From positions 31,707 to 95,706 of the forward strand of contig UQMK01000001.1 of the NCBI GenBank assembly GCA_900542085.1: a DNA stretch of 64,000 bases. The letters run 5' to 3'. The notes beneath the pieces are model-generated. The model was not told the origin of the DNA. It ran no database searches and was given only the letters and a program-made list of their open reading frames with translations. Both the position numbers and the translations under genes were made by a program. This document shows, in pieces, positions 1 through 59,050 of the stretch; position 1 is the stretch's first letter, and every line of letters begins with the position of its first letter. The DNA comes from an uncultured Collinsella sp. GTDB lineage: Bacteria > Actinomycetota > Coriobacteriia > Coriobacteriales > Coriobacteriaceae.

Positions 1-2256
1 TGCTCGTTCCTTATGATTGGCTATACGCGCACGCCCGAGGCCATCAAGAACGCCTTCACCCAGATCATCCTCAACATGCTGGGCGGCATCGCGTTTTTGG
101 CCGGCCTCATGTACCTGCACGTTAACGGTATGCCGCTGACCATCTCGGGTATGATCGAGCTTTCCGGCGCCGGAACCGCGCAATCCGCGCTGCTGGTGAT
201 GCCGGTCATTCTGCTGTCGCTCGCCGCACTCACCAAGGCCGCACAGATGCCGTTCCACACTTGGCTGCTTGGCGCCATGGTTGCCCCCACGCCCACGAGC
301 GCCCTGCTGCACTCGTCAACCATGGTCAAAGCCGGCGTGTTCCTAATGGTCAAGCTGAGCCCGCTCTATGCCATCTATCCCGTGACCGGCTTTATGGTCA
401 CGAGTGTGGGTGCCATCACGTTTTTGCTCGCTGCCCTCATGGCCATCTCGCAGAGCAACGCCAAGCGCGTGCTCGCGTACTCCACCATTTCCAACTTGGG
501 TCTCATCAGTGCCTGCCTGGGTGTCGGCGCGCCCGAGGCCGTATGGGCGGCCATCTTCCTGATCCTGTTCCACACGGTGGCAAAGTCGCTGCTGTTCCTG
601 TGCGTGGGCACGGCCGAGCATCATATCGGCAGCCGCAATATCGAGGACATGGACGGTATGTTCAGCCGCATGCCGCACCTGACGCGCCTGATGATGCTGG
701 GCATCATGGGCATGTTTGTGGCGCCGTTTGGCATGCTCGTGTCCAAGTGGGGCGCCCTGGTTGCGTTTGCGCAGACCGGCAACGTGCTCATGATCATGGT
801 GCTTGCCTTTGGCTCGGCCGCGACGTTTTACTTCTGGGGCAAGTGGCTTGCCAAGCTTTCGGGCGTCGACCCCACGGCTCAAAACGTTGAGGTCAATGTC
901 CATAAGACCGAATGGATGGCGCTCAACACCATCGCCGCACTGCTGATTCTGTGCTGCGTGGCGTTCCCGATTATCTCGAGCGGTCTGGTGTCGCCTTACT
1001 TGGCCATGGTGTTTGGCCGCGTGCCGTACGTTATCGGCAAGGACGCCATGTATCTGATGGTGGTTATCGTGGCTTTTATCGCCGTGGTGCTGCTGACGTC
1101 GTTCCGCGTGAGCAATAAGCCGCACGTCAACGTGTACCTTTCGGGCGTGGGAACCGACAAATATCGCCATTTCCGCGGCTCGATGGGACACGAGGTGAAG
1201 GCCGAAAAGCGCAATTGGTACTCGGAGGACGCCCTTGGCGAGAAGCGTATCGGCCCCGCGGGCAGCGTCGTGTGCTGCAGCATTATCTTGTTTGCGCTGC
1301 TGTGTTGCGCGTGGATTGGACCCGAGCGGCTTGCCATGAGCGCGCCCTCGGTGCTGCGCGGCAAGTATTTTGAAGGTTCGGGCGTCGTGGGCATCTTTAT
1401 TGGTACCGTGGCGTTTGCCTTGCTGGCGCCTTTGGTTGGTGGCCTGATCGACGGCGTTGACCGTAAGCTTTCGGCTCGCATGCAGGGCCGCGTGGGCCCG
1501 CGCTTGCTGCAGCCCTTCTACGACGTTGCCAAGCTGTTGCGCAAGGCTCCTGCCAGCGTAAACACCATGGACGATACCTACATGGCGTGCGCGCTCATCT
1601 TTACCGTGGTGGGCGGCGGCATCTTTGTGTCGGGTTCCAACACGCTGTTGTGCGCTTTTATGGTGACGCTCGCCGCGATCTTTGTGGTGTTGGCGTCCGC
1701 CTCGACGCAAAGCCCGTTTGCCCAGGTCGGCGCCGACCGCGAGCTGCTGCAGGTTATGAGTTACGAGCCCGCCGTTCTGCTGATGAGCGTGGGCCTGTAT
1801 CTTGCCACCGACAGCTTCGATTCCATTGCCGTGACGGGGCAGTCGGCCCCCATCGTCGTGTACAGCGCGCCCATTTTCTTCGCGCTGCTCGCGGTGCTTA
1901 CCATCAAGCTGCGCAAGTCGCCGTTTGACCTTTCGTACTCGCATCACGCGCATCAGGAGATTGTCCAGGGCGTCGCCACCGAGATGAGCGGCGGCACGCT
2001 GGCAAAGATGACCCTTATGCACTGGTGCGAGACCGTGCTGTTTTTGATGTGGGTGGGCATGTTCTTTGTTTGGGACAACCCGGTGAGCTGGGTCGTGGCC
2101 CTGGTCGTGATGGCCGCGACGTATTTTGTCGAGGTGCTGATCGACAACACCTTCGCACGCAGCACCTGGCGCAGCTGCTTTAAGCTCGGATGGGGCGTGG
2201 CGCTGGTGTTTGGCCTGCTCAACCTTATGCCCATCCTCGTCGACGTGTTTATTTAG
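1..2256 (+). CDS. Ech-type hydrogenase membrane subunits, apparent in-frame fusion of a NuoL/HyfB-like antiporter module (N-terminal part, 5'-truncated by the window edge) and a NuoH/HycD/EchB-like module
   Basis: The ORF is open to position 1. It has many transmembrane helices. The C-terminal half carries the NuoH/HycD signature GLIDGVDRKLSARMQGRVGPRLLQPFYDVAKLL. The N-terminal half resembles NuoL/MnhA antiporter-like subunits. It is followed by small, large and FeS hydrogenase subunit genes. Confidence 0.8.
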   Translation, partial: CSFLMIGYTRTPEAIKNAFTQIILNMLGGIAFLAGLMYLHVNGMPLTISGMIELSGAGTAQSALLVMPVILLSLAALTKAAQMPFHTWLLGAMVAPTPTSALLHSSTMVKAGVFLMVKLSPLYAIYPVTGFMVTSVGAITFLLAALMAISQSNAKRVLAYSTISNLGLISACLGVGAPEAVWAAIFLILFHTVAKSLLFLCVGTAEHHIGSRNIEDMDGMFSRMPHLTRLMMLGIMGMFVAPFGMLVSKWGALVAFAQTGNVLMIMVLAFGSAATFYFWGKWLAKLSGVDPTAQNVEVNVHKTEWMALNTIAALLILCCVAFPIISSGLVSPYLAMVFGRVPYVIGKDAMYLMVVIVAFIAVVLLTSFRVSNKPHVNVYLSGVGTDKYRHFRGSMGHEVKAEKRNWYSEDALGEKRIGPAGSVVCCSIILFALLCCAWIGPERLAMSAPSVLRGKYFEGSGVVGIFIGTVAFALLAPLVGGLIDGVDRKLSARMQGRVGPRLLQPFYDVAKLLRKAPASVNTMDDTYMACALIFTVVGGGIFVSGSNTLLCAFMVTLAAIFVVLASASTQSPFAQVGADRELLQVMSYEPAVLLMSVGLYLATDSFDSIAVTGQSAPIVVYSAPIFFALLAVLTIKLRKSPFDLSYSHHAHQEIVQGVATEMSGGTLAKMTLMHWCETVLFLMWVGMFFVWDNPVSWVVALVVMAATYFVEVLIDNTFARSTWRSCFKLGWGVALVFGLLNLMPILVDVFI

Positions 2257-2268
2257 GAGGCGGCATTC

Positions 2269-2886
2269 ATGGATCATAAAATGTCGCGCTCGCCGTGGGT
2301 TATTCATTACGACGGCTCGAGCTGCAACGGATGCGATATCGAGGTGCTGGCCTCGCTCACGCCGCTGTTCGATGCGGAGCGGTTTGGCGTGGTCAACACC
2401 GGCAACCCCAAGCATGCGGACATCTTTTTGGTGACGGGTTCGGTCAATGCCCAGAACCTGCCCGTCGTGCGCCAGATCTACAACCAGATGCTCGAGCCCA
2501 AGTGCGTGGTGGCGTGCGGCATCTGCGCGTGCTCGGGCGGCGTATTCCGCGATGCCTACAACGTGATCGGAGGCGTGGACCGCGCGATTCCCGTGGACGT
2601 ATACGCACCCGGGTGTGCCATTCGTCCCGAGACGGTGATTGATGCCATCGTGGAGGCGTGCGGCATCCTGGATCAGAAGGAGGCCGTGATGCGTGCTGGC
2701 GGTGACCCGCTTACCGTGGGCGGTGCTGCTACCTGGGATGGCGGCGTTGAGCTGGGCGAGGACGGATTTGTGGCTGCGGGGGCCGGGGCTGACGGTGCCG
2801 GTGACGCGCCTGCCGGGAAGCCCGCCGCGCCCGTCGCTGGCGACGCATCTGCTGAGACGCCCGCCGCTGCAAAGGAGGCCGAGTAA
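2269..2886 (+). CDS. echC: Ech hydrogenase small subunit (NuoB/HycG-like) with Ala/Gly/acidic low-complexity C-terminal tail
   Basis: It carries NuoB-like Cys motifs (CNGC...CGICACSGG...PGC). An AGGAGG RBS lies 7 nt upstream of the ATG. The last ~65 aa are an A/G/D/E-rich tail. Confidence 0.85.
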   Translation: MDHKMSRSPWVIHYDGSSCNGCDIEVLASLTPLFDAERFGVVNTGNPKHADIFLVTGSVNAQNLPVVRQIYNQMLEPKCVVACGICACSGGVFRDAYNVIGGVDRAIPVDVYAPGCAIRPETVIDAIVEACGILDQKEAVMRAGGDPLTVGGAATWDGGVELGEDGFVAAGAGADGAGDAPAGKPAAPVAGDASAETPAAAKEAE

Positions 2887-3602
2887 TGCAAAAGGCTATC
2901 TATACCACCGTCGGGATCGACGAGCTCCTGTCGCATGTCCAGGCGCTCAAGGGCGTCGGCGCGCGCTTTGTGCAAATGCATGCCGAGCGCAACGTCGACG
3001 ACGGCACGTATCGCCTGGTCTATACGTTTATCAACGTTCGTGCTGCACAGGAGCAGATCGCTCAGGATGGCAGCTATGCGATCGAGAACCTGGTGGTCGA
3101 GGGCATCGACCAGTACCAGGAGATTCCGTCCATCAGCTCGTATTATCCGGCGGTATTCCCGTTTGAGAACGAGGCGCACGACCTGTTTGGGCTTGCCATT
3201 ACCGATATGCAGATCGACTTTAAGGGCTTTTTCTACCAGGTCTCGACTGCCGAGCCCATGAGCGTTATCACACCCGAGGTGAAGGCCGCGCGCGAGAAAG
3301 CCATGAAGGTCCGTGCCGCCGCAGAGGCCAAGGCGCGCAAGGCTGCGGCCGAAAAGGCCGCTGCCGCTGCTGCTGCGGGGGAGGGCGCCGCAGGCGCCGG
3401 CGATGCTGCGGGCGCTGCCGTCGCCCAGTCCGCTGCGGCTACCGGCTCCGATGCTCAGCACGATGGGGCTGCTGCGAAGGCCGCGCTCAAGGCTGCCGAG
3501 ATGGAGGCAAAGCTCGCAGCCATGGATCCCGAGAAAGCGGCCAAGGTCCGCGCGGCACTTGCCGCCAGGGCCGCCCGCGACAAGCAGAAAAAGGAGGCGT
3601 AA
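2886..3602 (+). CDS. echD: Ech hydrogenase subunit EchD (NuoC/HycE-N-like) with long Ala/Lys-rich C-terminal tail
   Basis: It has NuoC-like 30-kDa subunit homology (…YRLVYTFINV…FENEAHDLFGL…). Its start overlaps the previous stop in a TAATG arrangement. The last ~100 aa are an AKAAAE-rich low-complexity tail. Confidence 0.75.
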   Translation: MQKAIYTTVGIDELLSHVQALKGVGARFVQMHAERNVDDGTYRLVYTFINVRAAQEQIAQDGSYAIENLVVEGIDQYQEIPSISSYYPAVFPFENEAHDLFGLAITDMQIDFKGFFYQVSTAEPMSVITPEVKAAREKAMKVRAAAEAKARKAAAEKAAAAAAAGEGAAGAGDAAGAAVAQSAAATGSDAQHDGAAAKAALKAAEMEAKLAAMDPEKAAKVRAALAARAARDKQKKEA

Positions 3603-3607
3603 GGTCC

Positions 3608-4696
3608 ATGGCACATCGCTCCGTTATTCCGTTTGGCCCGCAACACCCGGTGCTGCCCGAGCCGCTTCATCTGGACCTGGTGATCGAGGACGACCGCGTC
3701 ATCGAGGCAATTCCGCAGATCGGCTTTGTGCACCGCGGACTCGAGAAGCTCACCGAAAAGCGCGACATGCACCAGTTTGGCTACATCGCCGAGCGCATCT
3801 GCGGCATCTGCGCCGTGGGCCACAGCTACGGCTATGCCAGCGCCTGCGAGCGCATGCTCGACATCGAGGTGCCCGGCCGCGCGCAGTATATCCGCACCAT
3901 TTTGCACGAGCTTTCGCGCATCCACTCGCATCTGCTGTGGCTGGGCCTGCTCGCCGATGCCTTTGGCTTCGAGGCGCTGTTCTATCGGTCGTGGACCCTG
4001 CGCGAGCAGATTCTCAAGATCTTCGAGAGCACGTGCGGTGGTCGCGTGATTCTGTCGATCAACGAGATCGGCGGCCTTAAGCACGACATTGAGGACTCCG
4101 AGCTGGCGGGTATTGTCCAGACGCTCGATGCCATGCGTCCCGACTACGAGGCCCTGGTGCATACGTTTTTGGACGACAATAGCTGCGGCGAGCGCCTGCA
4201 TGGCGTGGGCGTGATCAGCAAGAAGGACGCGCTGAATCTGTCGATGGTCGGCCCGTTCGGTCGCGCCTCGGGCGTGGATTACGACGTGCGCATGTTTGGC
4301 GACGGTGCCTATGCAGGCCTGGCAGCATTTGAGCCCATCGTTGCTACCGACGGCGACTGCTATGCCCGCTGCCAGGTGCGTTGTGCCGAGGTCACGCAGG
4401 CCATGGACATCATCAAGGAGCTTGTGGGCAAGATTCCGCACGACGGTATCGGCGGGCGCACCAAGCTCACGCCGGCCGACGGCGCGCGCGGCGAGGTTGT
4501 GATTGAGCAGCCGCGCGGCGAGGCGTACTACTATGTGCGCGGTAACGGCACCAAGAATCTGGACCGTTTTCGCGTGCGCACGCCGACGTCGCAAAATCTG
4601 GCGGGTCTGACGCATGCGTTGCAGGGCGTGCTCCTTGCCAACGTGCCCATGATTATCCTGACCATCGACCCCTGCATTAGCTGCACGGAAAGGTAG
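3608..4696 (+). CDS. echE: Ech hydrogenase large (catalytic NiFe) subunit, NuoD/HycE-like
   Basis: The N-terminal RICGICAVGHSYGYASACE motif and the C-terminal DPCISCTER motif are Ni-binding Cys pairs. The protein ends directly after the motif with no C-terminal extension. There is an AGGAGG RBS. Confidence 0.9.
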   Translation: MAHRSVIPFGPQHPVLPEPLHLDLVIEDDRVIEAIPQIGFVHRGLEKLTEKRDMHQFGYIAERICGICAVGHSYGYASACERMLDIEVPGRAQYIRTILHELSRIHSHLLWLGLLADAFGFEALFYRSWTLREQILKIFESTCGGRVILSINEIGGLKHDIEDSELAGIVQTLDAMRPDYEALVHTFLDDNSCGERLHGVGVISKKDALNLSMVGPFGRASGVDYDVRMFGDGAYAGLAAFEPIVATDGDCYARCQVRCAEVTQAMDIIKELVGKIPHDGIGGRTKLTPADGARGEVVIEQPRGEAYYYVRGNGTKNLDRFRVRTPTSQNLAGLTHALQGVLLANVPMIILTIDPCISCTER

Positions 4697-4703
4697 GCGC
4701 GGC

Positions 4704-5045
4704 ATGAGTTTACTGACATTTGCCAAGACGGCCTTGGGCTCTATGGTCAAGCAGCCGGTCACGGTGTGCTATCCGCAGGAAAAGCTCGTGGCGCCCGAGC
4801 GCCTGCGCGGGCACATCGTTAACGACATGGACGTGTGCATTTGCTGCGGCATGTGCGCGCGTCGCTGCCCGGCGGGCGCGCTTGCGGTCGATCGCAAGGG
4901 CGGTACCTGGTCGATCGATCCGTATGCCTGCGTGGTATGCGGCGAGTGTATCGAAAGCTGTCCCAAACACTGCCTGACTATGGACACCGCCCGCACCCCA
5001 GTCGCAGCGAACAAGACTCCCACGGTAGAAGCTAAGTCGGAGTAG
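4704..5045 (+). CDS. echF: Ech hydrogenase 2x[4Fe-4S] ferredoxin subunit (NuoI/HycF-like)
   Basis: It has two CxxCxxCxxxCP motifs (CICCGMCARRCP and CVVCGECIESCP). Confidence 0.85.
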   Translation: MSLLTFAKTALGSMVKQPVTVCYPQEKLVAPERLRGHIVNDMDVCICCGMCARRCPAGALAVDRKGGTWSIDPYACVVCGECIESCPKHCLTMDTARTPVAANKTPTVEAKSE

Positions 5046-5127: not shown

Positions 5128-5284
5128 CGAACAAAACTATGCCGGTTTACTACGATAAATCGCCTACTCTCAACCACACCGCATTTGGCAAAACAAAAAC
5201 CGCAGGTAGACGGCTCGCAGTTTTGCGAAAAAGCCGCGTGTGATCGGCGACCACGTTTTTATCGTAGTAAACCGGCATAGTTTT
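5128..5284. repeat. MITE-like/palindromic unit 1: 28-bp terminal inverted repeats CAAAACTATGCCGGTTTACTACGATAAA flanking ~97 bp
   Basis: There is a forward copy at 5131-5158 and a reverse-complement copy at 5257-5284. Confidence 0.7.
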
Positions 5285-5387
5285 GAAATGCCACCATATC
5301 AGTACCAGCCCCTGATCTCCCGTGGACAGAGGGAAACGGATCATTTTGGTCCCGCGAGGCTTGCGGAGGCACCCGTGCAGGGCCGCC

Positions 5388-5549
5388 CGAACAAAACTAT
5401 GTCGGTTTACTACGATGAATTCGACATTCCCGACCATGACTGCATTTTTCTAAATATTGCAAGCGTTCTACCTGCGGTTTTGCAAGCGCGCAATTTACCG
5501 TGGTCGAAGGTGGGCGATTCATCGTAGTAAACCGGCATAGTTTTGAAAT
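5388..5549. repeat. MITE-like/palindromic unit 2: near-identical 29-bp inverted repeats (one C/T difference) flanking ~100 bp
   Basis: There is a forward copy at 5391-5419 and a reverse copy at 5520-5548. The left flank CGAACAAAAC and right flank TTGAAATG are shared with unit 1, which points to tandem duplication. Confidence 0.7.
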
Positions 5550-39737: not shown

Positions 39738-40979
39738 TTAGGGCCTGGGCGTTCCGCAGTTGCTGCAGAACTTGCCGCCGTTTTCGCTGCCGCAGTTGGG
39801 GCAGAACCACTTGGCCGGTGCCGGGGCGGGTGCGGGGCTGCCGCACTCGGAGCAGAACTTGCCGGTGTTGGTGGCGCCGCAGCTGCAGGTCCATGCGCCG
39901 GCCACAGGTGCGGCAGCGGGTGCCGGTGCGGGGGCGGGAGCCGGAGACGGCTGCGGGGCAGCCTGCTGCTGTGCCTGGCCGGCGGCAAACAGCTGGCTAG
40001 CGTTCATGCCGCCCATGCCACCTGCCATGCCCATGCCCATAAAGCCTGCCATCGCGCCGTTGGGGTTGGCCGCTGCCGCGCGCATCGCGTCGCTCTGGGC
40101 GCTGGCGATGTTGGCGGCCGCCATGGTGGGATCGCGCATGACTGCGGCCTTCTGCAGGTCCTTGATCATCTGCTCGTCTTCTTGCGAGGCGGCGATGGAG
40201 TTGACGCCAAAGCTCACGATCTCGACGCCACGTAGGTCGCGCCAGTCGGCCGAGAGGACCTCGTTGAGCGCGCGGGCGAGCTCGGTGGTGTGACCGGGGA
40301 TGGCGCTGTAGCGAATGCCCATTTCCGAGATCTTGGCAAAGGCGGGCTGCAGAGCGGTGAGCAGCTCGGACTTAAGCTGGCTGTCGATCTTATCGCGCGT
40401 GTAGCTATCGGTCACGTTGCCGCACACGTTGGTGTAGAACAGCAGCGGGTTGGTGATGCGGTACGAATACTCGCCGTTGCAGCGCACGGAGATGTCGACG
40501 TCCAGGCCAATGTTGTTATCGACCACGCGGAAGGGCACAGGCGAGGCGGTGCCGTACTTGTTGCCGATGATCTCCTTGGTGTTGATGAAGTAGACGCGCT
40601 GGTCTTTGCCCGCGTCGCCGCCAAAGGTAAAGCGGCTGCCGATATTGGCGAACGTCTCCTTGATGGAGTCGCCCAGGTTGCCGCTAAAGACGCTCGGCTC
40701 GCTGCCGGTGTCAAAGACAAACTCACCGGGCTCCAGCGCGACCTCGATGATCTTGCCGTTTTGCACCACGAGCATGCCCTGGCCGTCGTTGACGGCGATG
40801 ACGGAGCCGTTGGAGATGACGTTGTCCTCGCCGCGCGTGTTGGAGCTGCGGCCGCCGGTGCGCTTGCTGCCCTTGCAGGCCAAGACGTCAGCGGGCATCG
40901 ATTCGCAATAGATAAATTCCTTCCACTGGTCGGCCATGACGCCGCCGGCAGCGCCCAATCCAGCTTTCAAGAGTCCCAT
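39738..40979 (-). CDS. SPFH/band-7 (YdjI-like) protein fused to two C-terminal zinc ribbons, with Gly/Met/Ala- and Pro/Ala-rich linker
   Basis: It has an SPFH-like core and a C-terminal CSCGATNTGKFCSECG…CPNCGSENGGKFCSNCG. Confidence 0.65.
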   Translation of the reverse strand: MGLLKAGLGAAGGVMADQWKEFIYCESMPADVLACKGSKRTGGRSSNTRGEDNVISNGSVIAVNDGQGMLVVQNGKIIEVALEPGEFVFDTGSEPSVFSGNLGDSIKETFANIGSRFTFGGDAGKDQRVYFINTKEIIGNKYGTASPVPFRVVDNNIGLDVDISVRCNGEYSYRITNPLLFYTNVCGNVTDSYTRDKIDSQLKSELLTALQPAFAKISEMGIRYSAIPGHTTELARALNEVLSADWRDLRGVEIVSFGVNSIAASQEDEQMIKDLQKAAVMRDPTMAAANIASAQSDAMRAAAANPNGAMAGFMGMGMAGGMGGMNASQLFAAGQAQQQAAPQPSPAPAPAPAPAAAPVAGAWTCSCGATNTGKFCSECGSPAPAPAPAKWFCPNCGSENGGKFCSNCGTPRP

Positions 40980-41027
40980 GGTGATCTTCCTTTCTCGTCA
41001 AAGGCCGGGTGGTATTGGTCAGAATGG

Positions 41028-42350
41028 CTAATCGTCCTTGTTGTCCTTCATGACAACGGTGGTCTCGGTGTGGCTGAAGGTGTCGTGCTTCTCGGTCAGG
41101 TCGAGCTCGCCGCAGTAGCAGTCGGCGTGGGTGGCCTCGTTGGCCGTCTTGAGCTGGCCTACCAGCAGCACGTCTGCGATGATCACGATGATCAGCGGCG
41201 CGACGATGTTGATGAGGATGCCCTCGACATCAAAGGTGAGGTAATCCGGATCGAAGGCGTTCTCGCCCATAAAGAGAATCTGGGAAAGGACAAATCCGAT
41301 CGCAAAGAACAGCACCGAGGCGATAGCGAGCTTGGGCTTGGAGCAGGGAAGCTCGCCGACCATGCGGCCGGTTTGGCCGTTCATGGCAAACAGGTAACTC
41401 TTGCCGTTCCACGAGGTAGAGAGCATCCACACGGGGAACAGAGCATAATCGTTTTCTTCCCAGGTGTAGTCGAGCTGCTTGCTTTCGACCGTGGCGTCGT
41501 CGTACTCGTCGACGACGGTCTCGCGCAGGGCCGAGATCGTGCTCTCCTCCATGCGGCGCTCGGCGCGCGCCTTGCAGGTTTCGCAATCCTCGTCATAGCG
41601 GTTGGCGATGTAGCCGGGCATATAGGCGACCGAGAACGGGCGCAGCGCGTCGTAGTCAAACGGCTCGATGGCGTCCATGTGGCCGTCGGGCATCTTGGAC
41701 GATCCGTCGACGGGCACGCGCTCAAACGAGATATTGCCCTTACGGTAGGCGTCGTAGTGGTCGGTGGTCGTGACGGTGCGGTCGGATTCCTCGGTCACGG
41801 TCTCGTTGGTCGCGTCAAAGTACACTTCGCCGTCAACGCGGGCGCCGTAGAGCCAAAACGGCACGTAAACGCCTTGGACCTCGTCGATGTGGTTGCCGGT
41901 GACAAAGCTCTTGGGCAGCAGGATTTTACCCTTGTAGTGGTCTTTGAGCGCGGCCATGACATCGTCGCGCCCGAGCTTAAACGGAATCACCAGGTCGGGT
42001 GAGAAGTCGCCCGAGAGCTGGCCGGGTGCCACGGCGGAGTTGCCGCAGTACGGGCAGGTGGTGACGGCGACGGTGCCGTCGGACACGAGCTCGGCGCCGC
42101 ACGACGAGCAGATGTAGCCGGCGTTTTGAGCCAGCTCCTGCACGGCATCGTCGACAGCAGGCTTGGGGGCCGCGGCTGCGGCATCGGCTTTGGCATTTGC
42201 CTTGTCCTGGCGCTCGCGATAGAGGGCCTCGACTTCTTCGACTTCAAAACGCGAATCGCAGTAGTCGCAGACGAGCTTTTGCTCGGCACTGGCAAAGTGA
42301 AGGGGGCCGCCACACGCGGGGCACTGATAGTTGACGCTCTCGAAGGCCAT
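41028..42350 (-). CDS. Membrane protein with two N-terminal zinc ribbons and two C-terminal TM helices (YdjG-like?)
   Basis: It has CPACG…CDYCD and CSSCG…CPYCG motifs, and its C-terminal hydrophobic helices are characteristic of membrane-spanning helices. Confidence 0.55.
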   Translation of the reverse strand: MAFESVNYQCPACGGPLHFASAEQKLVCDYCDSRFEVEEVEALYRERQDKANAKADAAAAAPKPAVDDAVQELAQNAGYICSSCGAELVSDGTVAVTTCPYCGNSAVAPGQLSGDFSPDLVIPFKLGRDDVMAALKDHYKGKILLPKSFVTGNHIDEVQGVYVPFWLYGARVDGEVYFDATNETVTEESDRTVTTTDHYDAYRKGNISFERVPVDGSSKMPDGHMDAIEPFDYDALRPFSVAYMPGYIANRYDEDCETCKARAERRMEESTISALRETVVDEYDDATVESKQLDYTWEENDYALFPVWMLSTSWNGKSYLFAMNGQTGRMVGELPCSKPKLAIASVLFFAIGFVLSQILFMGENAFDPDYLTFDVEGILINIVAPLIIVIIADVLLVGQLKTANEATHADCYCGELDLTEKHDTFSHTETTVVMKDNKDD

Positions 42351-42374
42351 GATCGGTCCTTTCGCTGCCGGAGG

Positions 42375-43112
42375 CTATGCGCCGATGGCGCCGCCGCAGT
42401 ATTCGCAGCGCCCGCTGGCATCGGGAATGGTGGTTGCACCGCAGAAGGGGCAGGTGACCGCGGTCTTGGGGGCCTTAGCGGCCACGACGCTGTCGCGCGT
42501 TTCCTGACGCAGCTGCACCAGCGCGTCGCGGACCTCGGTTGCCTGGCGCTTGGCCTCGCGGTATTCGATGGAACCGCGCTGATCGATGGTGGAGTCGTTC
42601 ACGCGCAGGTTGATCTCGGTAAAGTACGGCGTGTTGACGTGGATGGTCAGGTTAAAGTCGTAATCCAGGTCGTAGCGCGGCGGATTGTAGCTCTCGCGCT
42701 CGCCGTCTTTTGTCTCGCGATAGATTTCGGTGCGGTGCTCGTCGATATCCATATCGCAGCCGAGTACCTGCGAGAACTCGATGATGTCGGGATTGGCGTC
42801 GCGCCAGCGGCTCTGCGAAGTGATGATCAGCAGGCCCGCGTCTTCGTCGAGCATGATGTTGGTGCGCCCGGCCGAGAGTGTGCGCGTGGGGTTGAACGAC
42901 GCCAGGCGCTCGGCATTGGCCTCGCGGTAGGCGAGTTGCTCGCGGATATCGTCCGCGGTGCTGGAGCGATAGCCGTGGAAGTAGGGGGAGAGCTTGCCGG
43001 CACACTCTTTGCACAGGTAGCCTTCGCTGATCTTGGTCTTTCCCAAAAGTCCCAGCTCGGTACCGCAAATCGCGCACTCTTTCTTCTCGAACATCTTGTC
43101 AAAGAAGCCCAT
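42375..43112 (-). CDS. Zinc-ribbon protein (N- and C-terminal CxxC pairs), first gene of operon
   Basis: It has CAICG…CKEC and CPFCG…CEYCG motifs. Confidence 0.55.
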   Translation of the reverse strand: MGFFDKMFEKKECAICGTELGLLGKTKISEGYLCKECAGKLSPYFHGYRSSTADDIREQLAYREANAERLASFNPTRTLSAGRTNIMLDEDAGLLIITSQSRWRDANPDIIEFSQVLGCDMDIDEHRTEIYRETKDGERESYNPPRYDLDYDFNLTIHVNTPYFTEINLRVNDSTIDQRGSIEYREAKRQATEVRDALVQLRQETRDSVVAAKAPKTAVTCPFCGATTIPDASGRCEYCGGAIGA

Positions 43113-45168: not shown

Positions 45169-45618
45169 ATGGCGTCTCGGGGTTGCGCGTCTAATAAAAC
45201 TGCGGGCGCGCTTATCGCCGTGGTGGTCTTTGCCGCGGCGGTGACACTCATGCGAGTTTACGTTGCCGGCGACCATGGCGCTCAAGGAAAGACTGCCGCG
45301 CAAGTGTCGCTCAACGATTGCGCTGCCGTTCCGGTGGCGGTCAAGCTTATCGAGGACGGGGAGGCGCGGACGGTCTATGAGACCAACGATGCCGAACTGG
45401 TCGCATCGACTTTTGCCGCGCTCGATGGCTGCACCGTGGGGGATGCGGTGGATGAGCGGATGAGCGATGCCGGCCGAACGCTCGTCTTTATCTATACGGA
45501 TGGCTCGGAGCAATCGGTAGAACTTGAGGGCAAAAACATCGTGCTCGATAAGACGGCGTACCGACTTAACAGTGCCGATGAGTTATGGCGGCAGCTTGCC
45601 GCGATCAAAAACAGCTAA
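45169..45618 (+). CDS. Hypothetical small secreted/membrane-anchored protein
   Basis: It has an N-terminal hydrophobic segment (ALIAVVVFAAAVTL). Confidence 0.5.
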   Translation: MASRGCASNKTAGALIAVVVFAAAVTLMRVYVAGDHGAQGKTAAQVSLNDCAAVPVAVKLIEDGEARTVYETNDAELVASTFAALDGCTVGDAVDERMSDAGRTLVFIYTDGSEQSVELEGKNIVLDKTAYRLNSADELWRQLAAIKNS

Positions 45619-45638
45619 CGAAATTAGGGATGTACGGG

Positions 45639-47201
45639 ATGAGTGACTTGAGATTCTGCCCGGCGTGTGGGGCGCAGCTGCCTCGGGTCGCCGGCGTGCC
45701 GGTGCGATTTTGCCCGGGGTGCGGCGTCCGACTTGAGGGCGTTGTGGGCTACTCGGGCGCCGTGGGGGCTACAGATGGGGCGACTGCCGATGACGATGCG
45801 GACGAAGGCGGCGACCCGAGCGTGGACGCGCCGGCTGATGCGCCGGTGGAGACTGCCGGCGTCGCGTCGTCGTCTCGTGACGCGGCTACGACGGATACGC
45901 CTCACATCGGTGACCTTGAGCTTCATGCCGCATGCGATGCCTCTGGCGGGCAGGCACTCGCGCAGGTGGCGCTGCCGCGGGGCTGGCATATCGAAGAGGC
46001 GCATCTTGAGCGCAGCGGTAGCTTCGACTGCCCGATTTCGGTTGGCGTGACGGCAGCGGGTCCGATGGGCGAGCGGATTATGTACCACTCCGAGCTCTGT
46101 TACGTGGATGCGGGTACCGTTGCCAAGCGTATCCCCACGCAAACCGAGCACAAGGCGTTTATGCACGTGGAGGCAGCTTGCGACGAGCTAGCTCAGGCCT
46201 GCGCGGCACAGCTGGGCGCACGGGCGGAGGTTGTGGCCGAGCAACCGTACCCATCGAGCGCGGCGGTCGATATCGAGCGCGAGCGTGCCCGCGTAAAGCG
46301 CGAGGCGGCAAACGACTTTGCGATTCAGGGCTTTTCGATGGAGCCGAGCAATGTGATCTATGAGTGCCGCATGCGTCGATATCGGCTCGCGGACGCCCCA
46401 GTGCCCACCGAACTCGCGGTGGCGGCCAAAGTCGAGGGCTATGTGGCCTCGATCGTCGGCGTCGCGGGCTCTATGGGTAAAGGCATTGCCGCTGGGGCCG
46501 AGGCGCTGCTGGGCGCAGGCCTTTCGAGTGGGCTGATCGGCGGTGTTTTGGGCAAGCGCCTGCGCGAGCGCCAGGCGGCGGCAGCGGCGGGACAGGGCGT
46601 CGCGCAAGAACAGCCCACGGGTCGAGGCGGTTGCCCGGACGGAGCGTCGTTCGAGCTGGGCGCGGCCGACCTGCTGCAGTGGCGTATCAGGGACAGCTTC
46701 TGTTTGGTTGCGCCAGAAGGTCGCCTGGACGAGGCGGCCTCCACGGCGCTTGCATCAATGGCGTCGACTCTGCGGCTCAATCCGGCGATTGCACGCGAAG
46801 CGTCAGCTCAAAAGCAACAGATGGTGCTTGAGCAACGCCAACGCACGCAGATGAACATTGCCCAGCAGCAACAGCAGTTTGCAGCCTGGCAACAGATGCA
46901 TGCCTCGCAACAGGCGGCGTTCGACAGCTACCAGCAGGCGTGGTTCGATCGCAGCGACCGTCAGCACGCCGCGAATATGGCTGCCAGCGCCGCCAATTTT
47001 TCCAGCGCGGGCGTGGGGACGGGCGCTGCCTCGTATTCCGATGCCATTCGCGGGGTCAACCATTACGTCAGACCCGACGGCACCGATGTCGAGGTCTCGG
47101 TGATGGCCGACCAGGCCTGGGTCAACGGTTCGGGCGATGTGATCGGTACACGCGATGGCTTTGAACCCGGTTTTGGCTGGACGGAGCTGCCTCGTCAATA
47201 G
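45639..47201 (+). CDS. Hypothetical zinc-ribbon protein with Gln-rich C-terminal region
   Basis: It has an N-terminal CPACG…CPGCG ribbon and a Gln-rich C-terminal stretch (QQQQQFAAWQQMHASQQ). Confidence 0.55.
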   Translation: MSDLRFCPACGAQLPRVAGVPVRFCPGCGVRLEGVVGYSGAVGATDGATADDDADEGGDPSVDAPADAPVETAGVASSSRDAATTDTPHIGDLELHAACDASGGQALAQVALPRGWHIEEAHLERSGSFDCPISVGVTAAGPMGERIMYHSELCYVDAGTVAKRIPTQTEHKAFMHVEAACDELAQACAAQLGARAEVVAEQPYPSSAAVDIERERARVKREAANDFAIQGFSMEPSNVIYECRMRRYRLADAPVPTELAVAAKVEGYVASIVGVAGSMGKGIAAGAEALLGAGLSSGLIGGVLGKRLRERQAAAAAGQGVAQEQPTGRGGCPDGASFELGAADLLQWRIRDSFCLVAPEGRLDEAASTALASMASTLRLNPAIAREASAQKQQMVLEQRQRTQMNIAQQQQQFAAWQQMHASQQAAFDSYQQAWFDRSDRQHAANMAASAANFSSAGVGTGAASYSDAIRGVNHYVRPDGTDVEVSVMADQAWVNGSGDVIGTRDGFEPGFGWTELPRQ

Positions 47202-52660: not shown

Positions 52661-53329
52661 TTACTCGCCCAGTACCAGCGCCGTGAGCTCTGCCTGGGTG
52701 TCCACCACGTAGTCGGCGCCGGCGGCTTCCAGCTCTGCGCGGCCGCGGAAGCCCCAGCTGACGCCCGCGCTCTTAAGGCCGGCGTTGTGACCGGTCAGGA
52801 TATCGACATTGGAATCGCCCACATAGAGCGTGGTTGCCGGATTGGCGCCCAGCTCCTCCATCACATGCAGCGTGACGGGTGCTTCGGGCTTGGGCGGAAA
52901 CGCATCGACACGGCCCTGTACCAGCGCAAAGCGCTCGGGACCAAAATACTTCTCGATAAGCGGAGCCGCCGAGACGTGGTCCTTGTTAGTGAGCACGGCT
53001 AGCTGCACACCCGCGGCGCGCAGGCGGTCGAGCATCTCGATCGTGCCGGCATAGGGGGCGGTGTGGTCCTCCTTGTGCTCGCCGTAGTAAGCCCTAAACT
53101 CGGCAAGCGTCTGCTCAAACATACGGCTGTCGCCCGCATACTCGGCAGGCATAAAACGCTCAACCAGCTTGAGCATGCCGTTTCCCACCTTGTAGCGGTA
53201 CTCGTCGACGGCAAACGTGGGCCAGCCGTGCGTCTCGCAGGTATGGTTGCCGGCGGCCGCCAGGTCCTCGAGCGTGTTGAGGATGGTGCCGTCCAGGTCG
53301 AAGATCACATGGGAAAAAGCTGCTGCCAT
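52661..53329 (-). CDS. HAD-superfamily hydrolase (phosphatase/beta-phosphoglucomutase-like)
   Basis: Motif I (FDLDGTI) is near the N-terminus. The start was chosen at MAAAF; alternatives lie up to 53422. Confidence 0.75.
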   Translation of the reverse strand: MAAAFSHVIFDLDGTILNTLEDLAAAGNHTCETHGWPTFAVDEYRYKVGNGMLKLVERFMPAEYAGDSRMFEQTLAEFRAYYGEHKEDHTAPYAGTIEMLDRLRAAGVQLAVLTNKDHVSAAPLIEKYFGPERFALVQGRVDAFPPKPEAPVTLHVMEELGANPATTLYVGDSNVDILTGHNAGLKSAGVSWGFRGRAELEAAGADYVVDTQAELTALVLGE

Positions 53330-53452
53330 GAAAGCTCCCGTCATTGGATTTAAAACGCACCTCATAATACTGGGCTTCCGCGTTGGGCGTGCTTGGAATC
53401 TGAACATCTCCAGGGATACCAAGCCGCATCGCGCCGACCGTGCGGTTCCGCC

Positions 53453-54493
53453 CTAGCAAATTCTCGGCAGCTGCTCTCCCACGAGCATGTCGAGGATACG
53501 GGTCGAGCCCCAGCCGGTGCGCACGCGCACGGCGGGACGGGAGCCCTCGGCAAGTGGCAGCACGCGACCGATGATGGCGGCATTCTCGCCGTAGCGGGCG
53601 GCGCGCATGGCGCTCAACGCGGCATCGGCTTGCTCGGCCGGCACGACGGCAACCATCTTGCCCTCGTTTGCCACCTGCAGCACATCGTAGCCGAGCATCT
53701 CGCAGGCGGCCTGCACGTCGGGACGCACGGGCACGGCATCCTCGTCGACCTCCATGGCAACACCGCTGGCCTGGGCAAACTCGTTGAGTGTGGACGCCAG
53801 GCCACCGCGCGTGGGGTCGCGAAAGCAATGCGTGCCGGGCGCTGCGGCCAAAACGTCGGCAATCAGGTGGTTGAGCGGCGCAGCGTCGCTTTCTATCGTG
53901 CTCGAAAACGCCAGGCCCTCGCGTTGGCTCATGATGGCGATGCCGTGGTCGCCCAGCGTACCCGATACCAGAATGACATCGCCGGGCTGGCAGTTGGCAC
54001 CGCTGAGCGCCACGCCCGCGGGAACCTCGCCCACGCCGGCGGTATTGATGTAGACGCCGTCGGCCCCGCCGCGCTCGACCACCTTGGTGTCGCCCGTGAT
54101 TATGGACACGCCCGCTTCGCGCGCCGTTTCGGCCATCGTCTGCACAATCTGGCGGAGCTTATCCATGGGATAGCCCTCTTCGAGGATAAATCCGCACGAC
54201 AGGTAGCGCACGTTGGCGCCCGAGGTCGCGACGTCGTTGACGGTTCCGCACACGGCAAGGCGGCCGATGTTGCCACCGGGGAAGAACTGCGGCGAGACTA
54301 CAAAGCTGTCGGTCGACATGGCGATGCGCCCGCTCGCGGGCAGCGCGGCGACGCCGGCGTCGTTGCCCGCGAGCAGCTCGGGCGACCCAAAGGCATCCAA
54401 AAAGACCTCATCGATGATGCGTTTCATCATCTGACCGCCAGAGCCGTGGCCCAACAGGACGGTGCTATCGGTGGTGCTATGGGACATATCCAA
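53453..54493 (-). CDS. hypE: Hydrogenase maturation protein HypE
   Basis: It has a PurM-like fold and the C-terminal …PRIC motif typical of HypE. Confidence 0.9.
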   Translation of the reverse strand: MDMSHSTTDSTVLLGHGSGGQMMKRIIDEVFLDAFGSPELLAGNDAGVAALPASGRIAMSTDSFVVSPQFFPGGNIGRLAVCGTVNDVATSGANVRYLSCGFILEEGYPMDKLRQIVQTMAETAREAGVSIITGDTKVVERGGADGVYINTAGVGEVPAGVALSGANCQPGDVILVSGTLGDHGIAIMSQREGLAFSSTIESDAAPLNHLIADVLAAAPGTHCFRDPTRGGLASTLNEFAQASGVAMEVDEDAVPVRPDVQAACEMLGYDVLQVANEGKMVAVVPAEQADAALSAMRAARYGENAAIIGRVLPLAEGSRPAVRVRTGWGSTRILDMLVGEQLPRIC

Positions 54494-54535: not shown

Positions 54536-55648
54536 CTAGTCGCGATAACGGTAGTACGCCGCGCAGCTGCCCTCGGAGCTCACCATGCACGGGCCGACGG
54601 GGTGCTCGGGCGTGCAGGTGCGGCCAAAGAGCGGGCAGCTGTTCGGCGTAATGGCCCCGCGCAGCACGTCGCCGCAGCGGCATCCACGCGGCTCGACCGT
54701 CGCCTCAACGGGCACGTCAAAGCGAGCGCGGGCATCAAAGCGCGAGAACTCGGGGCGGATAGAAAGGCCCGAGTTGGCAATCGGCCCCAGCCCGCGCCAC
54801 GTGGTGCCGCATGGCTCAAACACCTGCTCGACCAGCTGGCGCGCCACGGGGTTGCCGTCTGCGTTGACGCCACGGCGGTAGGCGTTGTCGATCGCGGGTC
54901 TGTTCTCGACAACCATCTGGACCAGCATGCAGATGCCCTGCAGGATATCGACCGGTTCAAATCCCGTGACCACGCCCGGGGTATTGAACTCGTCGACCAA
55001 AAAGCTAAAGGGCGCCAAGCCCGTGATGGTGGCGACGTGGCCCGGCAGGATAAAGCCGTCGATGGCGGTCTCGGGGTCGTTGGCGATGGCGCGCAACGCC
55101 GGCGGCGTGGTCTTGTGGGCGCAATAGACCGAAAAGTTCAAAAGCCCGCGTGCCTCGGCCTCCAAGATGGCGGCGGCGATGGTGGGCGTCGTAGTCTCAA
55201 AGCCCACGCCCATAAAAATGACCGGACGATCGGGGTTTTGCTCGGCGATGTCGAGCGCGTCGAGCGGGGAATAGACGATGCGGATGTCGCGCCCTGCCGC
55301 CTTTTGCGCAGCGAGCGAGGTGGACGATCCGGGCACGCGCATCATGTCGCCAAAGGTGGTGATGATGGCGCCGTCTATGTTGGCGAGCGCGATCGCGTGG
55401 TCGATGTCGCGGTTGGCGGTTACGCAGACGGGGCACCCCGGGCCACTCAGCAGCTTGAGCCCGGCCGGCATAATGGAGCGAAAGCCATAGCGGCCGATGC
55501 TCACGGTGTGCGTGCCGCAGACTTCCATAAGGTTGATGGTGCGGTCGCCGACGAGTTCATGGATGCGTTCGATGAGCTCGCGGGCCAGCTTGGAATCGCG
55601 AAATGCCGAAAAGTCGATACCGGAGCGAGCCGGCTGTCCGGCCGCCAC
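54536..55648 (-). CDS. hypD: Hydrogenase maturation protein HypD
   Basis: It has the CGTHTVS, GPGCPVC and C-terminal Cys motifs. Confidence 0.9.
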   Translation of the reverse strand: MAAGQPARSGIDFSAFRDSKLARELIERIHELVGDRTINLMEVCGTHTVSIGRYGFRSIMPAGLKLLSGPGCPVCVTANRDIDHAIALANIDGAIITTFGDMMRVPGSSTSLAAQKAAGRDIRIVYSPLDALDIAEQNPDRPVIFMGVGFETTTPTIAAAILEAEARGLLNFSVYCAHKTTPPALRAIANDPETAIDGFILPGHVATITGLAPFSFLVDEFNTPGVVTGFEPVDILQGICMLVQMVVENRPAIDNAYRRGVNADGNPVARQLVEQVFEPCGTTWRGLGPIANSGLSIRPEFSRFDARARFDVPVEATVEPRGCRCGDVLRGAITPNSCPLFGRTCTPEHPVGPCMVSSEGSCAAYYRYRD

Positions 55649-55908
55649 TAGTATGCCTCGGCCGGGTTGCTGGCCAGTTGGTCTTCTACGACCAGTTCGG
55701 TCATGGTGTTGACCAGGTCGAGCGTCTCCTGCGCTTCCTGCTCGTCGACGATCTGGATGCCAAAGCCGGCGTGTACGAGAATATAGTCGCCAACCTGCGC
55801 CGTCGGCACGAGTCGTAGCGACACGGGGCGCTCGATGCCCATCATGTCGACGGTGGCCTTGAGGTCGTCGTCGCGTTTGACTACTTTACCGGGAACGGCA
55901 AGGCACAT
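55648..55908 (-). CDS. hypC: Hydrogenase maturation chaperone HypC
   Basis: It has the N-terminal MCLAVPGKV motif and the right length (86 aa). Confidence 0.9.
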   Translation of the reverse strand: MCLAVPGKVVKRDDDLKATVDMMGIERPVSLRLVPTAQVGDYILVHAGFGIQIVDEQEAQETLDLVNTMTELVVEDQLASNPAEAY

Positions 55909-58543: not shown

Positions 58544-59050
58544 TTACAGCCCCAGGCTCTGCTCGGTGGCGGCGCAGGTGAGCTCGCCGTGTTTAACCCC
58601 GCGCAGGCCCAGCAGACGGTCTGCCAGCTCGTAGACGCGCTCGCCGCGACCCTTAAGCGCCAGAATCTCCAAACAGTTGTGGTGATCCAGATGCACGTGC
58701 ATGGTCGATACGATCTCGTCGGTGTAGTCGTGTTGCACCTCGTCCAGGCGGCGCGTCAGGTCGCCGGTGTGATGGTCGTAAATCATGGTGAGCGACCCGA
58801 TGACCTGCTCGTCGGGCGTTCGCATCTGCTCCTTGGCAATCGAGGCGCGAATCAGGTCGCGCACGGCCTCGGAGCGGTTGGCCACGTCACCGCGGCGTGC
58901 GATCTGCTCGTCAAAGCGGCGCAGCAGGTCGTCGGGCGCGGTGACCGAAAAACGGACCAGCTCGGAGGCGGAGCCGCTGCAACGGCAGCCCGCGTCGCCG
59001 GTCGGCCCGTGCGAATGCTCGTGCCCGCAGGTGTGCTCGTGCTCGGCCAC
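58544..59050 (-). CDS. nikR: Nickel-responsive regulator NikR with His/Cys-rich N-terminal extension
   Basis: It has a ribbon-helix-helix (RFSVTAPDDLLRRFDEQI) and a C-terminal Ni-binding domain (HHTGD…HVHLDHHNCLE). The N-terminal extension is MAEHEHTCGHEHSHGP. Confidence 0.8.
   Translation of the reverse strand: MAEHEHTCGHEHSHGPTGDAGCRCSGSASELVRFSVTAPDDLLRRFDEQIARRGDVANRSEAVRDLIRASIAKEQMRTPDEQVIGSLTMIYDHHTGDLTRRLDEVQHDYTDEIVSTMHVHLDHHNCLEILALKGRGERVYELADRLLGLRGVKHGELTCAATEQSLGL

Follow-up and report, generated by a model that had tools for sequence, protein, structure and literature searches.

A probable group 4e (Ech-type) [NiFe] hydrogenase of Collinsella with the EchA-like and EchB-like membrane subunits joined in one polypeptide

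Introduction

Energy-converting [NiFe] hydrogenases of group 4e, the Ech type, have been described in Methanosarcina barkeri (EchABCDEF) and Thermoanaerobacter kivui (PMC9356269). They consist of a NuoL-like and a NuoH-like membrane subunit, EchA and EchB, and of NuoB-, NuoC-, NuoD- and NuoI-like peripheral subunits, six subunits being the minimal set stated for the group (PMC13582414). The large subunit carries both nickel-binding motifs and lacks a C-terminal extension, which is naturally missing in groups 4e, 4c and 4g and in the sensory hydrogenases (PMC7294309). Here we describe an operon at positions 1–5045 of a 64,000-nucleotide stretch from an uncultured Collinsella sp. (assembly GCA_900542085.1, contig UQMK01000001.1, positions 31,707 to 95,706 of the forward strand; this whole stretch is hereafter called the window). 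With a probability of about 85%, we consider it to encode a group 4e energy-converting [NiFe] hydrogenase of the Collinsella aerofaciens group, composed of five polypeptides instead of the usual six. The six modules and their order are those of the described Ech enzymes. Unlike in canonical Ech, EchA and EchB form here a single polypeptide of 960 aa, and C-terminal tails are present on EchC (68 residues) and on EchD (112 residues, with a conserved motif).

The closest solved structures by sequence are formate hydrogenlyase (FHL) of E. coli (HycC/HycD/HycE, 7Z0S) and the P. furiosus membrane-bound hydrogenase (MBH; MbhH/MbhM/MbhL, 6CFW). In both complexes, as in Ech, the hydrogenase module sits on the NuoH-like subunit beside an antiporter-like subunit; in contrast to our locus, these membrane subunits are separate chains. 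HycE is further distinguished by a NuoC-like N-terminal fusion, a cleaved C-terminal peptide and a formate dehydrogenase partner that is not encoded here, and MBH by additional Mrp-type subunits. Gene fusions are familiar in the complex I superfamily: NuoCD, NuoBCD and HycE (NuoC+NuoD) likewise arose by merging of neighbouring genes of touching subunits, and the fused CD and BCD variants were reported in 1,374 species in a genome survey (PMC12361115). These fusions, however, join subunits of the peripheral arm, whereas the fusion described here joins two integral membrane subunits, the L-like and the H-like one.

In the human gut, group 4e hydrogenases are moderately abundant and transcribed, yet were called functionally uncharacterised there (PMC12578642). 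HydDB-based tables of the same work list C. aerofaciens with hydrogenases of group 4e, group 4a and [FeFe] group A2. In the isolate studied, the group 4e enzyme was transcribed at 29.6 transcripts per million (TPM), the highest value of the three hydrogenases, versus 2.2 TPM for group 4a.

Results

The window opens inside the membrane-subunit open reading frame (ORF), in frame 1, with its 5′ end cut off and 751 of 960 codons visible. The NuoL-like and NuoH-like parts of this ORF are truly one protein. A single uninterrupted ORF was present in all of the 86 Collinsella loci compared (exactly 960 aa long in 81 of them), and each of these ORFs holds an RNWY loop of EchA type together with an ARMQGRVGP loop of EchB type. 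Among the best 120 matches listed from 5.8 billion clustered proteins, most were 940–1000 aa long, had three Pfam domains and were 53–98% identical to the query; more than 100 of the listed clusters were fused proteins of ~950–960 aa, with identity down to 53%, and their named sources were C. tanakaei, Collinsella sp., Coriobacteriaceae, Slackia sp. and S. heliotrinireducens. In 37 full-length homologues, invariant residues occur in both modules, among them E205, K288, K319 and K404 of the EchA part and the QGRxGP and KSPFD motifs of the EchB part. The canonical arrangement of two polypeptides, EchA of ~640 aa and EchB of ~290 aa, is thus replaced in this locus by one ORF of 960 aa. An earlier note on this DNA, which had seen only its letters and ORFs, had proposed just such a fusion and had named a stop codon or frameshift between the two modules, or orthologues with two separate genes between identical flanks, as what could speak against it; no such lesion was found in the assembled sequence, and the orthologues of the same species group are likewise fused.

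In the visible part of the ORF, Pfam places Proton_antipo_M at residues 1–272 (E 1e-44) and NADHdh at residues 472–743 (E 3e-38), and the full-length homologue P0002 (960 aa) is 97% identical. The best Foldseek matches of the N-terminal module were NuoL, Nqo12 and MrpA, and the PDB sequence matches of the C-terminal module were MbhM (6cfw_M) and HycD (7z0s_D). As judged from the alignments, the fusion is a plain end-to-end join of EchA (residues 1–647), a variable loop of ~22 residues and EchB (670–960). An exhaustive HMMER search against 1.84 billion representatives returned few full-length fused proteins (P0100, P0121, P0122 and P0124) and many unfused EchA of 630–656 aa, which match the query from residue 1 to ~645 with up to 53% identity; unfused EchB proteins (293–301 aa) match residues 674–952 with 53–56% identity. 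In unfused relatives the two genes lie close together, the echA stop and echB start overlapping as TAATG in L091 and being separated by 17 nt in an eggerthellacean locus (L214). Alignment of fused with unfused forms leaves only a variable linker of ~20–30 residues with no added helix, of about the same length as the free termini of unfused EchA and EchB combined. The AlphaFold2 (AF2) model of the fused protein (mean predicted local distance difference test score, pLDDT, 81.6; predicted template modelling score, pTM, 0.87) is of low confidence only at the linker and in some loops: the last helix of EchA covers residues 623–647, pLDDT drops below 50 at 658–664, and the first helix of EchB covers 670–703. 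This secondary structure was used for the topology, Kyte-Doolittle helix counting being too crude. Since the loop that follows the first helix of NuoH faces the cytoplasm in complex I, the EchA–EchB linker should, by analogy, be located on the outer face of the membrane.

The downstream genes provide the rest of the Ech module set. The locus comprises five tightly spaced or overlapping genes of the same strand, in which Pfam and NCBIfam recognise the module order echA-B-C-D-E-F with A and B in one frame (Table 1); the minimal six-module set is thus present in one operon. EchE has all the nickel-binding cysteines, in RICGICAVGHS (C65, C68) and DPCISCTER (C356, C359), in agreement with both the RxCGxCxxxH and the DPCxxCxxR motifs, and these motifs align with those of MbhL and HycE. 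It aligns end to end with the MBH large subunit MbhL (6cfw_L, E 9e-65), whereas the match to HycE of FHL (7z0s_E, E 6e-56) begins only at HycE residue 191. EchC contains the Cys motifs CNGC, GICACSGG and PGC; the stop codon of its gene shares 1 nt with the echD start. In the case of echF, public gene calls put the start at an internal Met (4743), giving 100 aa; the 113-aa product is the likely one because the N-terminus from the upstream start (MSLLTFAKTALGSMVKQPVTVCYP) aligns with EchF of Slackia and Eggerthellaceae. With a GC3 of the ORF of 0.82 and domain E-values from 1e-38 to 1e-48, the features of the operon are well beyond chance.

Table 1. The ech operon and the nickel- and cofactor-related genes of the window.
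Feature	Position	Strand	Evidence and remarks
echAB, fused membrane subunit (residues 210–960 of 960 aa)	1–2256	+	One ORF; 5′ end cut by the window
EchA module (NuoL/MrpA-like antiporter) through last transmembrane helix, full-length residues 210–647	1–1314	+	Unfused EchA matches, AF2, Foldseek
EchA–EchB linker loop, full-length residues 648–669, PERLAMSAPSVLRGKYFEGSGV	1315–1380	+	Variable alignment region, low AF2 pLDDT
EchB module (NuoH/HycD-like), full-length residues 670–960	1381–2256	+	Pfam NADHdh, unfused EchB matches, PDB sequence matches
echC, NuoB-like small subunit, 205 aa	2269–2886	+	Pfam Oxidored_q6, E 4e-28
EchC C-terminal tail, residues 138–205, Ala/Gly/acidic, 68 residues	2680–2883	+	Composition
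echD, NuoC-like subunit, 238 aa	2886–3602	+	Weak Pfam Complex1_30kDa, E 1e-5, residues 12–107
EchD tail, residues 127–238, basic helix + Ala/Gly spacer + terminal motif, 112 residues	3264–3599	+	Composition, alignment, AF2
EchD conserved terminal motif EMEAKLAAMDPEKAAKVRAALAARAARDKQKKEA	3495–3599	+	Common to genera; no Pfam family
echE, [NiFe] large subunit, 362 aa, no C-terminal extension	3608–4696	+	Pfam Complex1_49kDa, NiFeSe_Hases (NuoD-like)
echF, NuoI-like 2×[4Fe-4S] subunit, 113 aa	4704–5045	+	Fer4 families, NuoI NCBIfam matches
hypE	53453–54493	-	Pfam AIRS/AIRS_C
hypD	54536–55648	-	Pfam HypD
hypC	55648–55908	-	Pfam HupF_HypC
hypF	56043–58529	-	Pfam HypF_C_2/zf-HYPF/Acylphosphatase
nikR	58544–59050	-	Pfam NikR_C (E 2e-32), RHH_1; 15 bp upstream of hypF

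EchE was found as an exact match in 2511 blocks of a public assembly collection, and a one-genome-per-species scan with the alignment of the fused protein yielded 80 loci of 96–98% identity, nearly all of them labelled Collinsella or C. aerofaciens and with a complete membrane-subunit gene of 960 aa on their contigs. One contig labelled 'Treponemataceae bacterium' (CAVCKO010000036.1) harbours the Collinsella ech operon (97% identical), most likely through mis-binning into that metagenome-assembled genome (MAG). The flanking ~6 kb upstream and ~10 kb downstream encode an HTH protein, a two-component system and ABC transporters, which are unrelated to hydrogenase, and no formate dehydrogenase, CO dehydrogenase (CODH) or extra Mrp-type genes were found within these distances. 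Upstream of the window, Collinsella contigs (L001, 1–3144) encode, ~2.6 kb before echAB, a protein of ~3,550 aa with no Pfam match on record, followed by an SLFN/AlbA_2-HATPase protein and then by a small HTH protein.

The C-terminal tails are the second departure from canonical Ech. The Ala/Gly/acidic tail that the earlier note ascribed to the small subunit is borne out by its composition (29% Ala, 21% Gly, net charge −9). Among 84 Collinsella copies, the EchC extension is conserved over its first ~38 residues and in the terminal AAKEAE, and the middle part of GDAPAG type varies in length over 29 residues. The tail of EchD (44% Ala, 12% Lys, net charge +6) has three parts: a proximal basic helix ITPEVKAAREKAMKVRAAAEAKARKAAAEK, a hypervariable Ala/Gly spacer in which residues are gained and lost between strains, and a nearly invariant end, EMEAKLAAMDPEKAAKVRAALAA[KR]AARDKQKKEA within Collinsella, which is a conserved motif (EAKLAAMDPEKAAKVRAA...). 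The Ala/Lys-rich character of this tail, which the earlier note had also pointed out, is confirmed; its likeness to histone H1 or AKP repeats is not, no tandem repeat beyond (GCCGCT)3.3 being detected by Tandem Repeats Finder. In the AF2 model of EchD, which is of low confidence, helices at residues 130–162, 194–211 and 215–237 are separated by a coil (163–193) and by a break at M-D-P.

The terminal motif is recognisable between genera at ~50–70% identity and occurs across Coriobacteriia in one to three copies on EchD or EchF. There is one copy in EchD of Slackia and one in EchD of the relative from the JGI metagenome collection. Slackia EchF carries three: in S. heliotrinireducens (L087, 15024–15926) this subunit is 300 aa long versus 113 aa here, because its tail holds three MxPEKAAKFRAA copies. 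The motif is independent of the EchA–EchB fusion, since EchD of the unfused eggerthellacean operon carries two copies. It was absent from the two relatives outside Coriobacteriia that were compared, L089 and L091. A metagenome scan with a degenerate DNA pattern for PEKAAKxRAA gave at least 120 matching stretches, and every interpretable ORF among the matches listed was the tail of an EchD or EchF homologue, so the motif was found essentially nowhere else. Likewise, a 47-column profile of the motif searched against 5.8 billion proteins retrieved only 33–84-aa fragments of the same tails and no new carrier families. In three metagenome contigs (L117, L135 and L193), a transposase of the mutator type, a piece of SecA or an unrelated membrane protein is followed in the same frame by the motif; chimeric assembly, or insertion of an IS element in an ech tail, is the probable cause.

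It is possible, albeit rather doubtful, that the tails are a product of neutral low-complexity drift, typical of high-GC proteins of Actinomycetota, and have no function. The EchC tail fits such an explanation: it exists in 61 distinct forms among the 84 near-identical strains, is missing in Slackia EchC (146 aa) and is replaced by an unrelated sequence in EchC of the JGI relative (243 aa). Other EchA relatives, too, bear acidic or Ala/Glu-rich additions of unrelated sequence, and neither of the two isolated tails matched any Pfam family. Drift accounts poorly, however, for the conserved ends of the EchC tail and especially for the EchD/EchF motif: selection on the motif is indicated by the sequence comparison because it is nearly invariant in Collinsella beside a freely changing spacer, is kept between genera, moves between EchD and EchF and is duplicated. 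We therefore favour the interpretation of the tails as lineage-specific flexible extensions, with the motif as a putative element for docking or contact where electrons enter the peripheral arm.

A possible parallel is E. coli RsxC/RnfC, whose C-terminus carries six copies of an Ala/Lys-rich repeat (DPRKAAVEAAIARAKARK). These repeats, too, lie at the C-terminal end of an Fe-S-associated subunit on the soluble side of a membrane complex linked to ferredoxin; like the EchD motif, they start with D-P-x-K-A-A and continue as a basic helix rich in Ala, and repetition is possible in either case. Homology was not supported (hhalign probability 4.4%, 8 aligned columns), and the resemblance may be compositional only. 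We know of no function assigned to the RsxC repeats.

Fused operons of the same gene order are present in Slackia (L087) and in the JGI metagenome relative (L088), while close relatives retain unfused ones. Outside Coriobacteriia, fused proteins were found in Kiritimatiellales MAGs (43% identical) and in a metagenome contig of 40% GC (L089, 1273–11663; 41% identical), where the gene order is rearranged to echE-echF-cobW/HypB-like GTPase-echAB-echC-echD. The latter operon is immediately preceded by a group-3-like hydrogenase cluster with a HycI protease of its own. In a Kiritimatiellales MAG with fused echAB (L216, 9852–10757), EchC is itself fused to a C-terminal GNAT acetyltransferase (301 aa, Oxidored_q6 and Acetyltransf_1). 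Of the unfused EchA relatives, P0127 bears an Asp/Thr-rich acidic C-terminal tail of ~120 residues and P0130 an Ala/Glu-rich insertion after the GYMKDFQ loop.

The fusion seems to have arisen several times independently, as the more distant fused lineages (three, one of them in Kiritimatiellales) fall outside the fused clade of Coriobacteriia. In bootstrapped neighbour-joining trees of the EchA part (100 replicates), the fused proteins of Coriobacteriia formed a clade in 86 replicates and all fused proteins together in none. P0122 (Kiritimatiellales) and P0124 (low-GC) were each 45–47% identical to several unfused EchA and at most 42% identical to any fused protein. This reading is tentative because these are distance trees on long branches. 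A single early fusion, with the unfused operons of close relatives produced by secondary fission, appears unlikely. It could explain why the unfused Eggerthellaceae L214 shares the downstream neighbours (CDP-OH_P_transf, AMP-binding) of the fused Slackia locus and has so short an echA–echB spacer; but L214 EchA was placed inside the fused clade in only 2 of the 100 replicates, and P0122 and P0124 are closer to unfused EchA than to their fused counterparts.

The remaining part of the window contains hypCDEF and nikR, and no hypA, hypB or hycI was found in its 64 kb with Pfam on the tested ORFs, the gene calls of a near-identical contig and a six-frame motif scan, which agrees with the inventory given in the earlier note. 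Entries for hypA, hypB or the protease were also absent from the supplementary files of PMC12578642. The nikR-hypFCDE genes are apparently one unit, which suggests a nickel-responsive control of cofactor synthesis; a HAD hydrolase gene (52661–53422) follows hypE. The stop codon of echE comes directly after DPCISCTER, at the same point where the deposited MbhL chain of P. furiosus ends, whereas the E. coli HycE chain extends 32 residues further. The same ending was observed in Slackia, the JGI relative, L089 and L214. The abrupt end of the large subunit, which the earlier note had singled out, is therefore real and at the same time nothing peculiar, being the norm of group 4e (PMC7294309). With its chain closing at the last nickel-binding motif, as is the case throughout group 4e, EchE would require no endopeptidase. 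Since the species also has a protease-dependent group 4a hydrogenase elsewhere in the genome, additional maturation genes could well lie beyond these 64 kb, and their absence from the window is no sign that the organism lacks them.

Two other features of the window deserve mention. In the lower-GC spacer after echF there are two tandem units of ~155 bp (5132–5285 and 5392–5545), each flanked by inverted repeats of 28–29 nt (CAAAACTATGCCGGTTTACTACGAT...) that occur nowhere else in the window. With these flanks, they look like miniature inverted-repeat (MITE-like) elements; exact copies of the inverted repeat are present in 32 of the 213 fetched loci, the copy number varies between strains, and the spacer between echF and the next gene ranges from 301 to 798 bp. 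Rfam gave no match in the whole window, these units included. At 39738–43112 (− strand) and 45585–47201 (+ strand) lie several genes in a row for proteins rich in zinc ribbons (Band_7_1, Trm112p-like ribbon, DUF4428), as well as a 538-aa ORF that matched nothing in Pfam; none of these is related to the hydrogenase.

Discussion

The data presented agree with the assignment to the Ech type that had been made from the sequence alone: the modules, their order and the nickel-ligand cysteines all correspond. We consider it very improbable that the complex belongs instead to another subtype of group 4 (FHL of groups 4a/4b, the CO-linked group 4c or group 4g) or to a non-hydrogenase relative such as Mbx or Fpo. 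In favour of such alternatives, the structures nearest in sequence are those of MBH and FHL, no Ech structure having been found in the PDB, and one annotation pipeline labelled the large subunit 'Formate hydrogenlyase subunit 5'. All four nickel-ligand cysteines are, however, present, and the complex is therefore a hydrogenase. There are exactly six Ech modules in the Ech order with none of the formate dehydrogenase, CODH or extra Mrp-type genes nearby, and EchE has neither the NuoC-like N-terminal fusion nor the C-terminal extension of HycE. The names given by JGI to the homologues are 'ech hydrogenase subunit A/B', and the HydDB-based analysis puts the C. aerofaciens enzyme in group 4e, its group 4a enzyme being a separate gene (PMC12578642). 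As for a frameshift introduced by sequencing or assembly, or a recent lesion of the pseudogene type, merging two genes that are separate, adjacent and sometimes overlapping in most Ech operons (L091, L214), so that a single indel could mimic the fusion, its probability is negligible given the in-frame ORF kept in all 86 independent assemblies, the more than 100 fused clusters from isolates and metagenomes, a linker that is translated and varies by substitutions and in-frame indels, and junction DNA (1315–1380) with neither a stop codon nor a homopolymer run.

Several observations weigh against the proposed assignment or against a role of the tails. The group 4e reference of HydDB for C. aerofaciens is WP_006235754.1 (PMC12578642 supplement), which may differ from EchE of the window; one group 4e gene is tabulated for the isolate CC00529 (PMC12578642). 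With hypA and hypB absent from the window, nickel insertion is left unexplained there. The dependence on ferredoxin, whether H2 is evolved or taken up, and the nature of the ion moved are carried over from the family; on these points the sequence shows the 2×[4Fe-4S] EchF and the invariant charged residues of the antiporter module. The EchC tail varies so much between strains that a specific function may be absent. The helix-cap-helix of the EchD tail is weakly predicted (pLDDT of the tail 28–63, mean of the whole model 54).

By analogy with the characterised Ech enzymes, the following mechanism may be envisaged. Reduced ferredoxin produced by pyruvate oxidation would deliver electrons via EchF and EchC to the Ni-Fe site in EchE, where H2 would be formed from protons while the EchAB module exports ions through the membrane. 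Synthesis of the cofactor would fall to the nikR-hypFCDE cluster, at a distance of 48 kb, together with nickel-insertion genes lying outside the window. The last transmembrane helix of EchA passes through the flexible loop of ~22 residues into the first helix of EchB, and the fusion would hold the two neighbouring membrane subunits together at a 1:1 stoichiometry. The EchD/EchF motifs might then serve as contact elements on a tether, close to where ferredoxin enters.

One may go further and combine two proposals, namely that the MDPEKAAKVRAA-type helix-cap-helix is an unrecognised docking module and that repeated fusions fix the positions of the EchA C-terminus and the EchB N-terminus; this combined reading we regard as a speculation with poor odds. 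A docking module on a flexible Ala/Gly linker could recruit an acidic ferredoxin or pyruvate:ferredoxin oxidoreductase, or link Ech complexes together. In the 2-oxoacid dehydrogenases, peripheral-subunit-binding domains are carried on Ala/Pro linkers in an analogous way.

Sequences of the fused gene are already public under various annotations ('NADH-quinone oxidoreductase subunit H', 'proton-conducting transporter membrane subunit', 'ech hydrogenase subunit A'). We found no description of an EchA–EchB or L–H fusion, or of the tails, in the openly available literature, the survey of CD and BCD variants (PMC12361115) included, nor anything relevant on Ech in Coriobacteriia, which is absence of evidence only. 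The architecture is a variation on a well-known enzyme.

Conclusions

The understanding of what Ech is or does stays unchanged by these findings. Their interest lies in the carrier and in the architecture. Collinsella is a very common carrier of group 4e Ech in the human gut, and its natural single-chain EchAB constrains how the antiporter-like and NuoH-like subunits meet in Ech, an enzyme for which we found no PDB entry. If the repeated fusions are true, the EchA C-terminus and the EchB N-terminus would have to lie side by side on one face of the membrane, probably the outer one. The fused operon is a convenient five-gene version of Ech for heterologous expression or cryo-EM, and through the tail motif the way in which Ech meets its electron donor may become open to testing.

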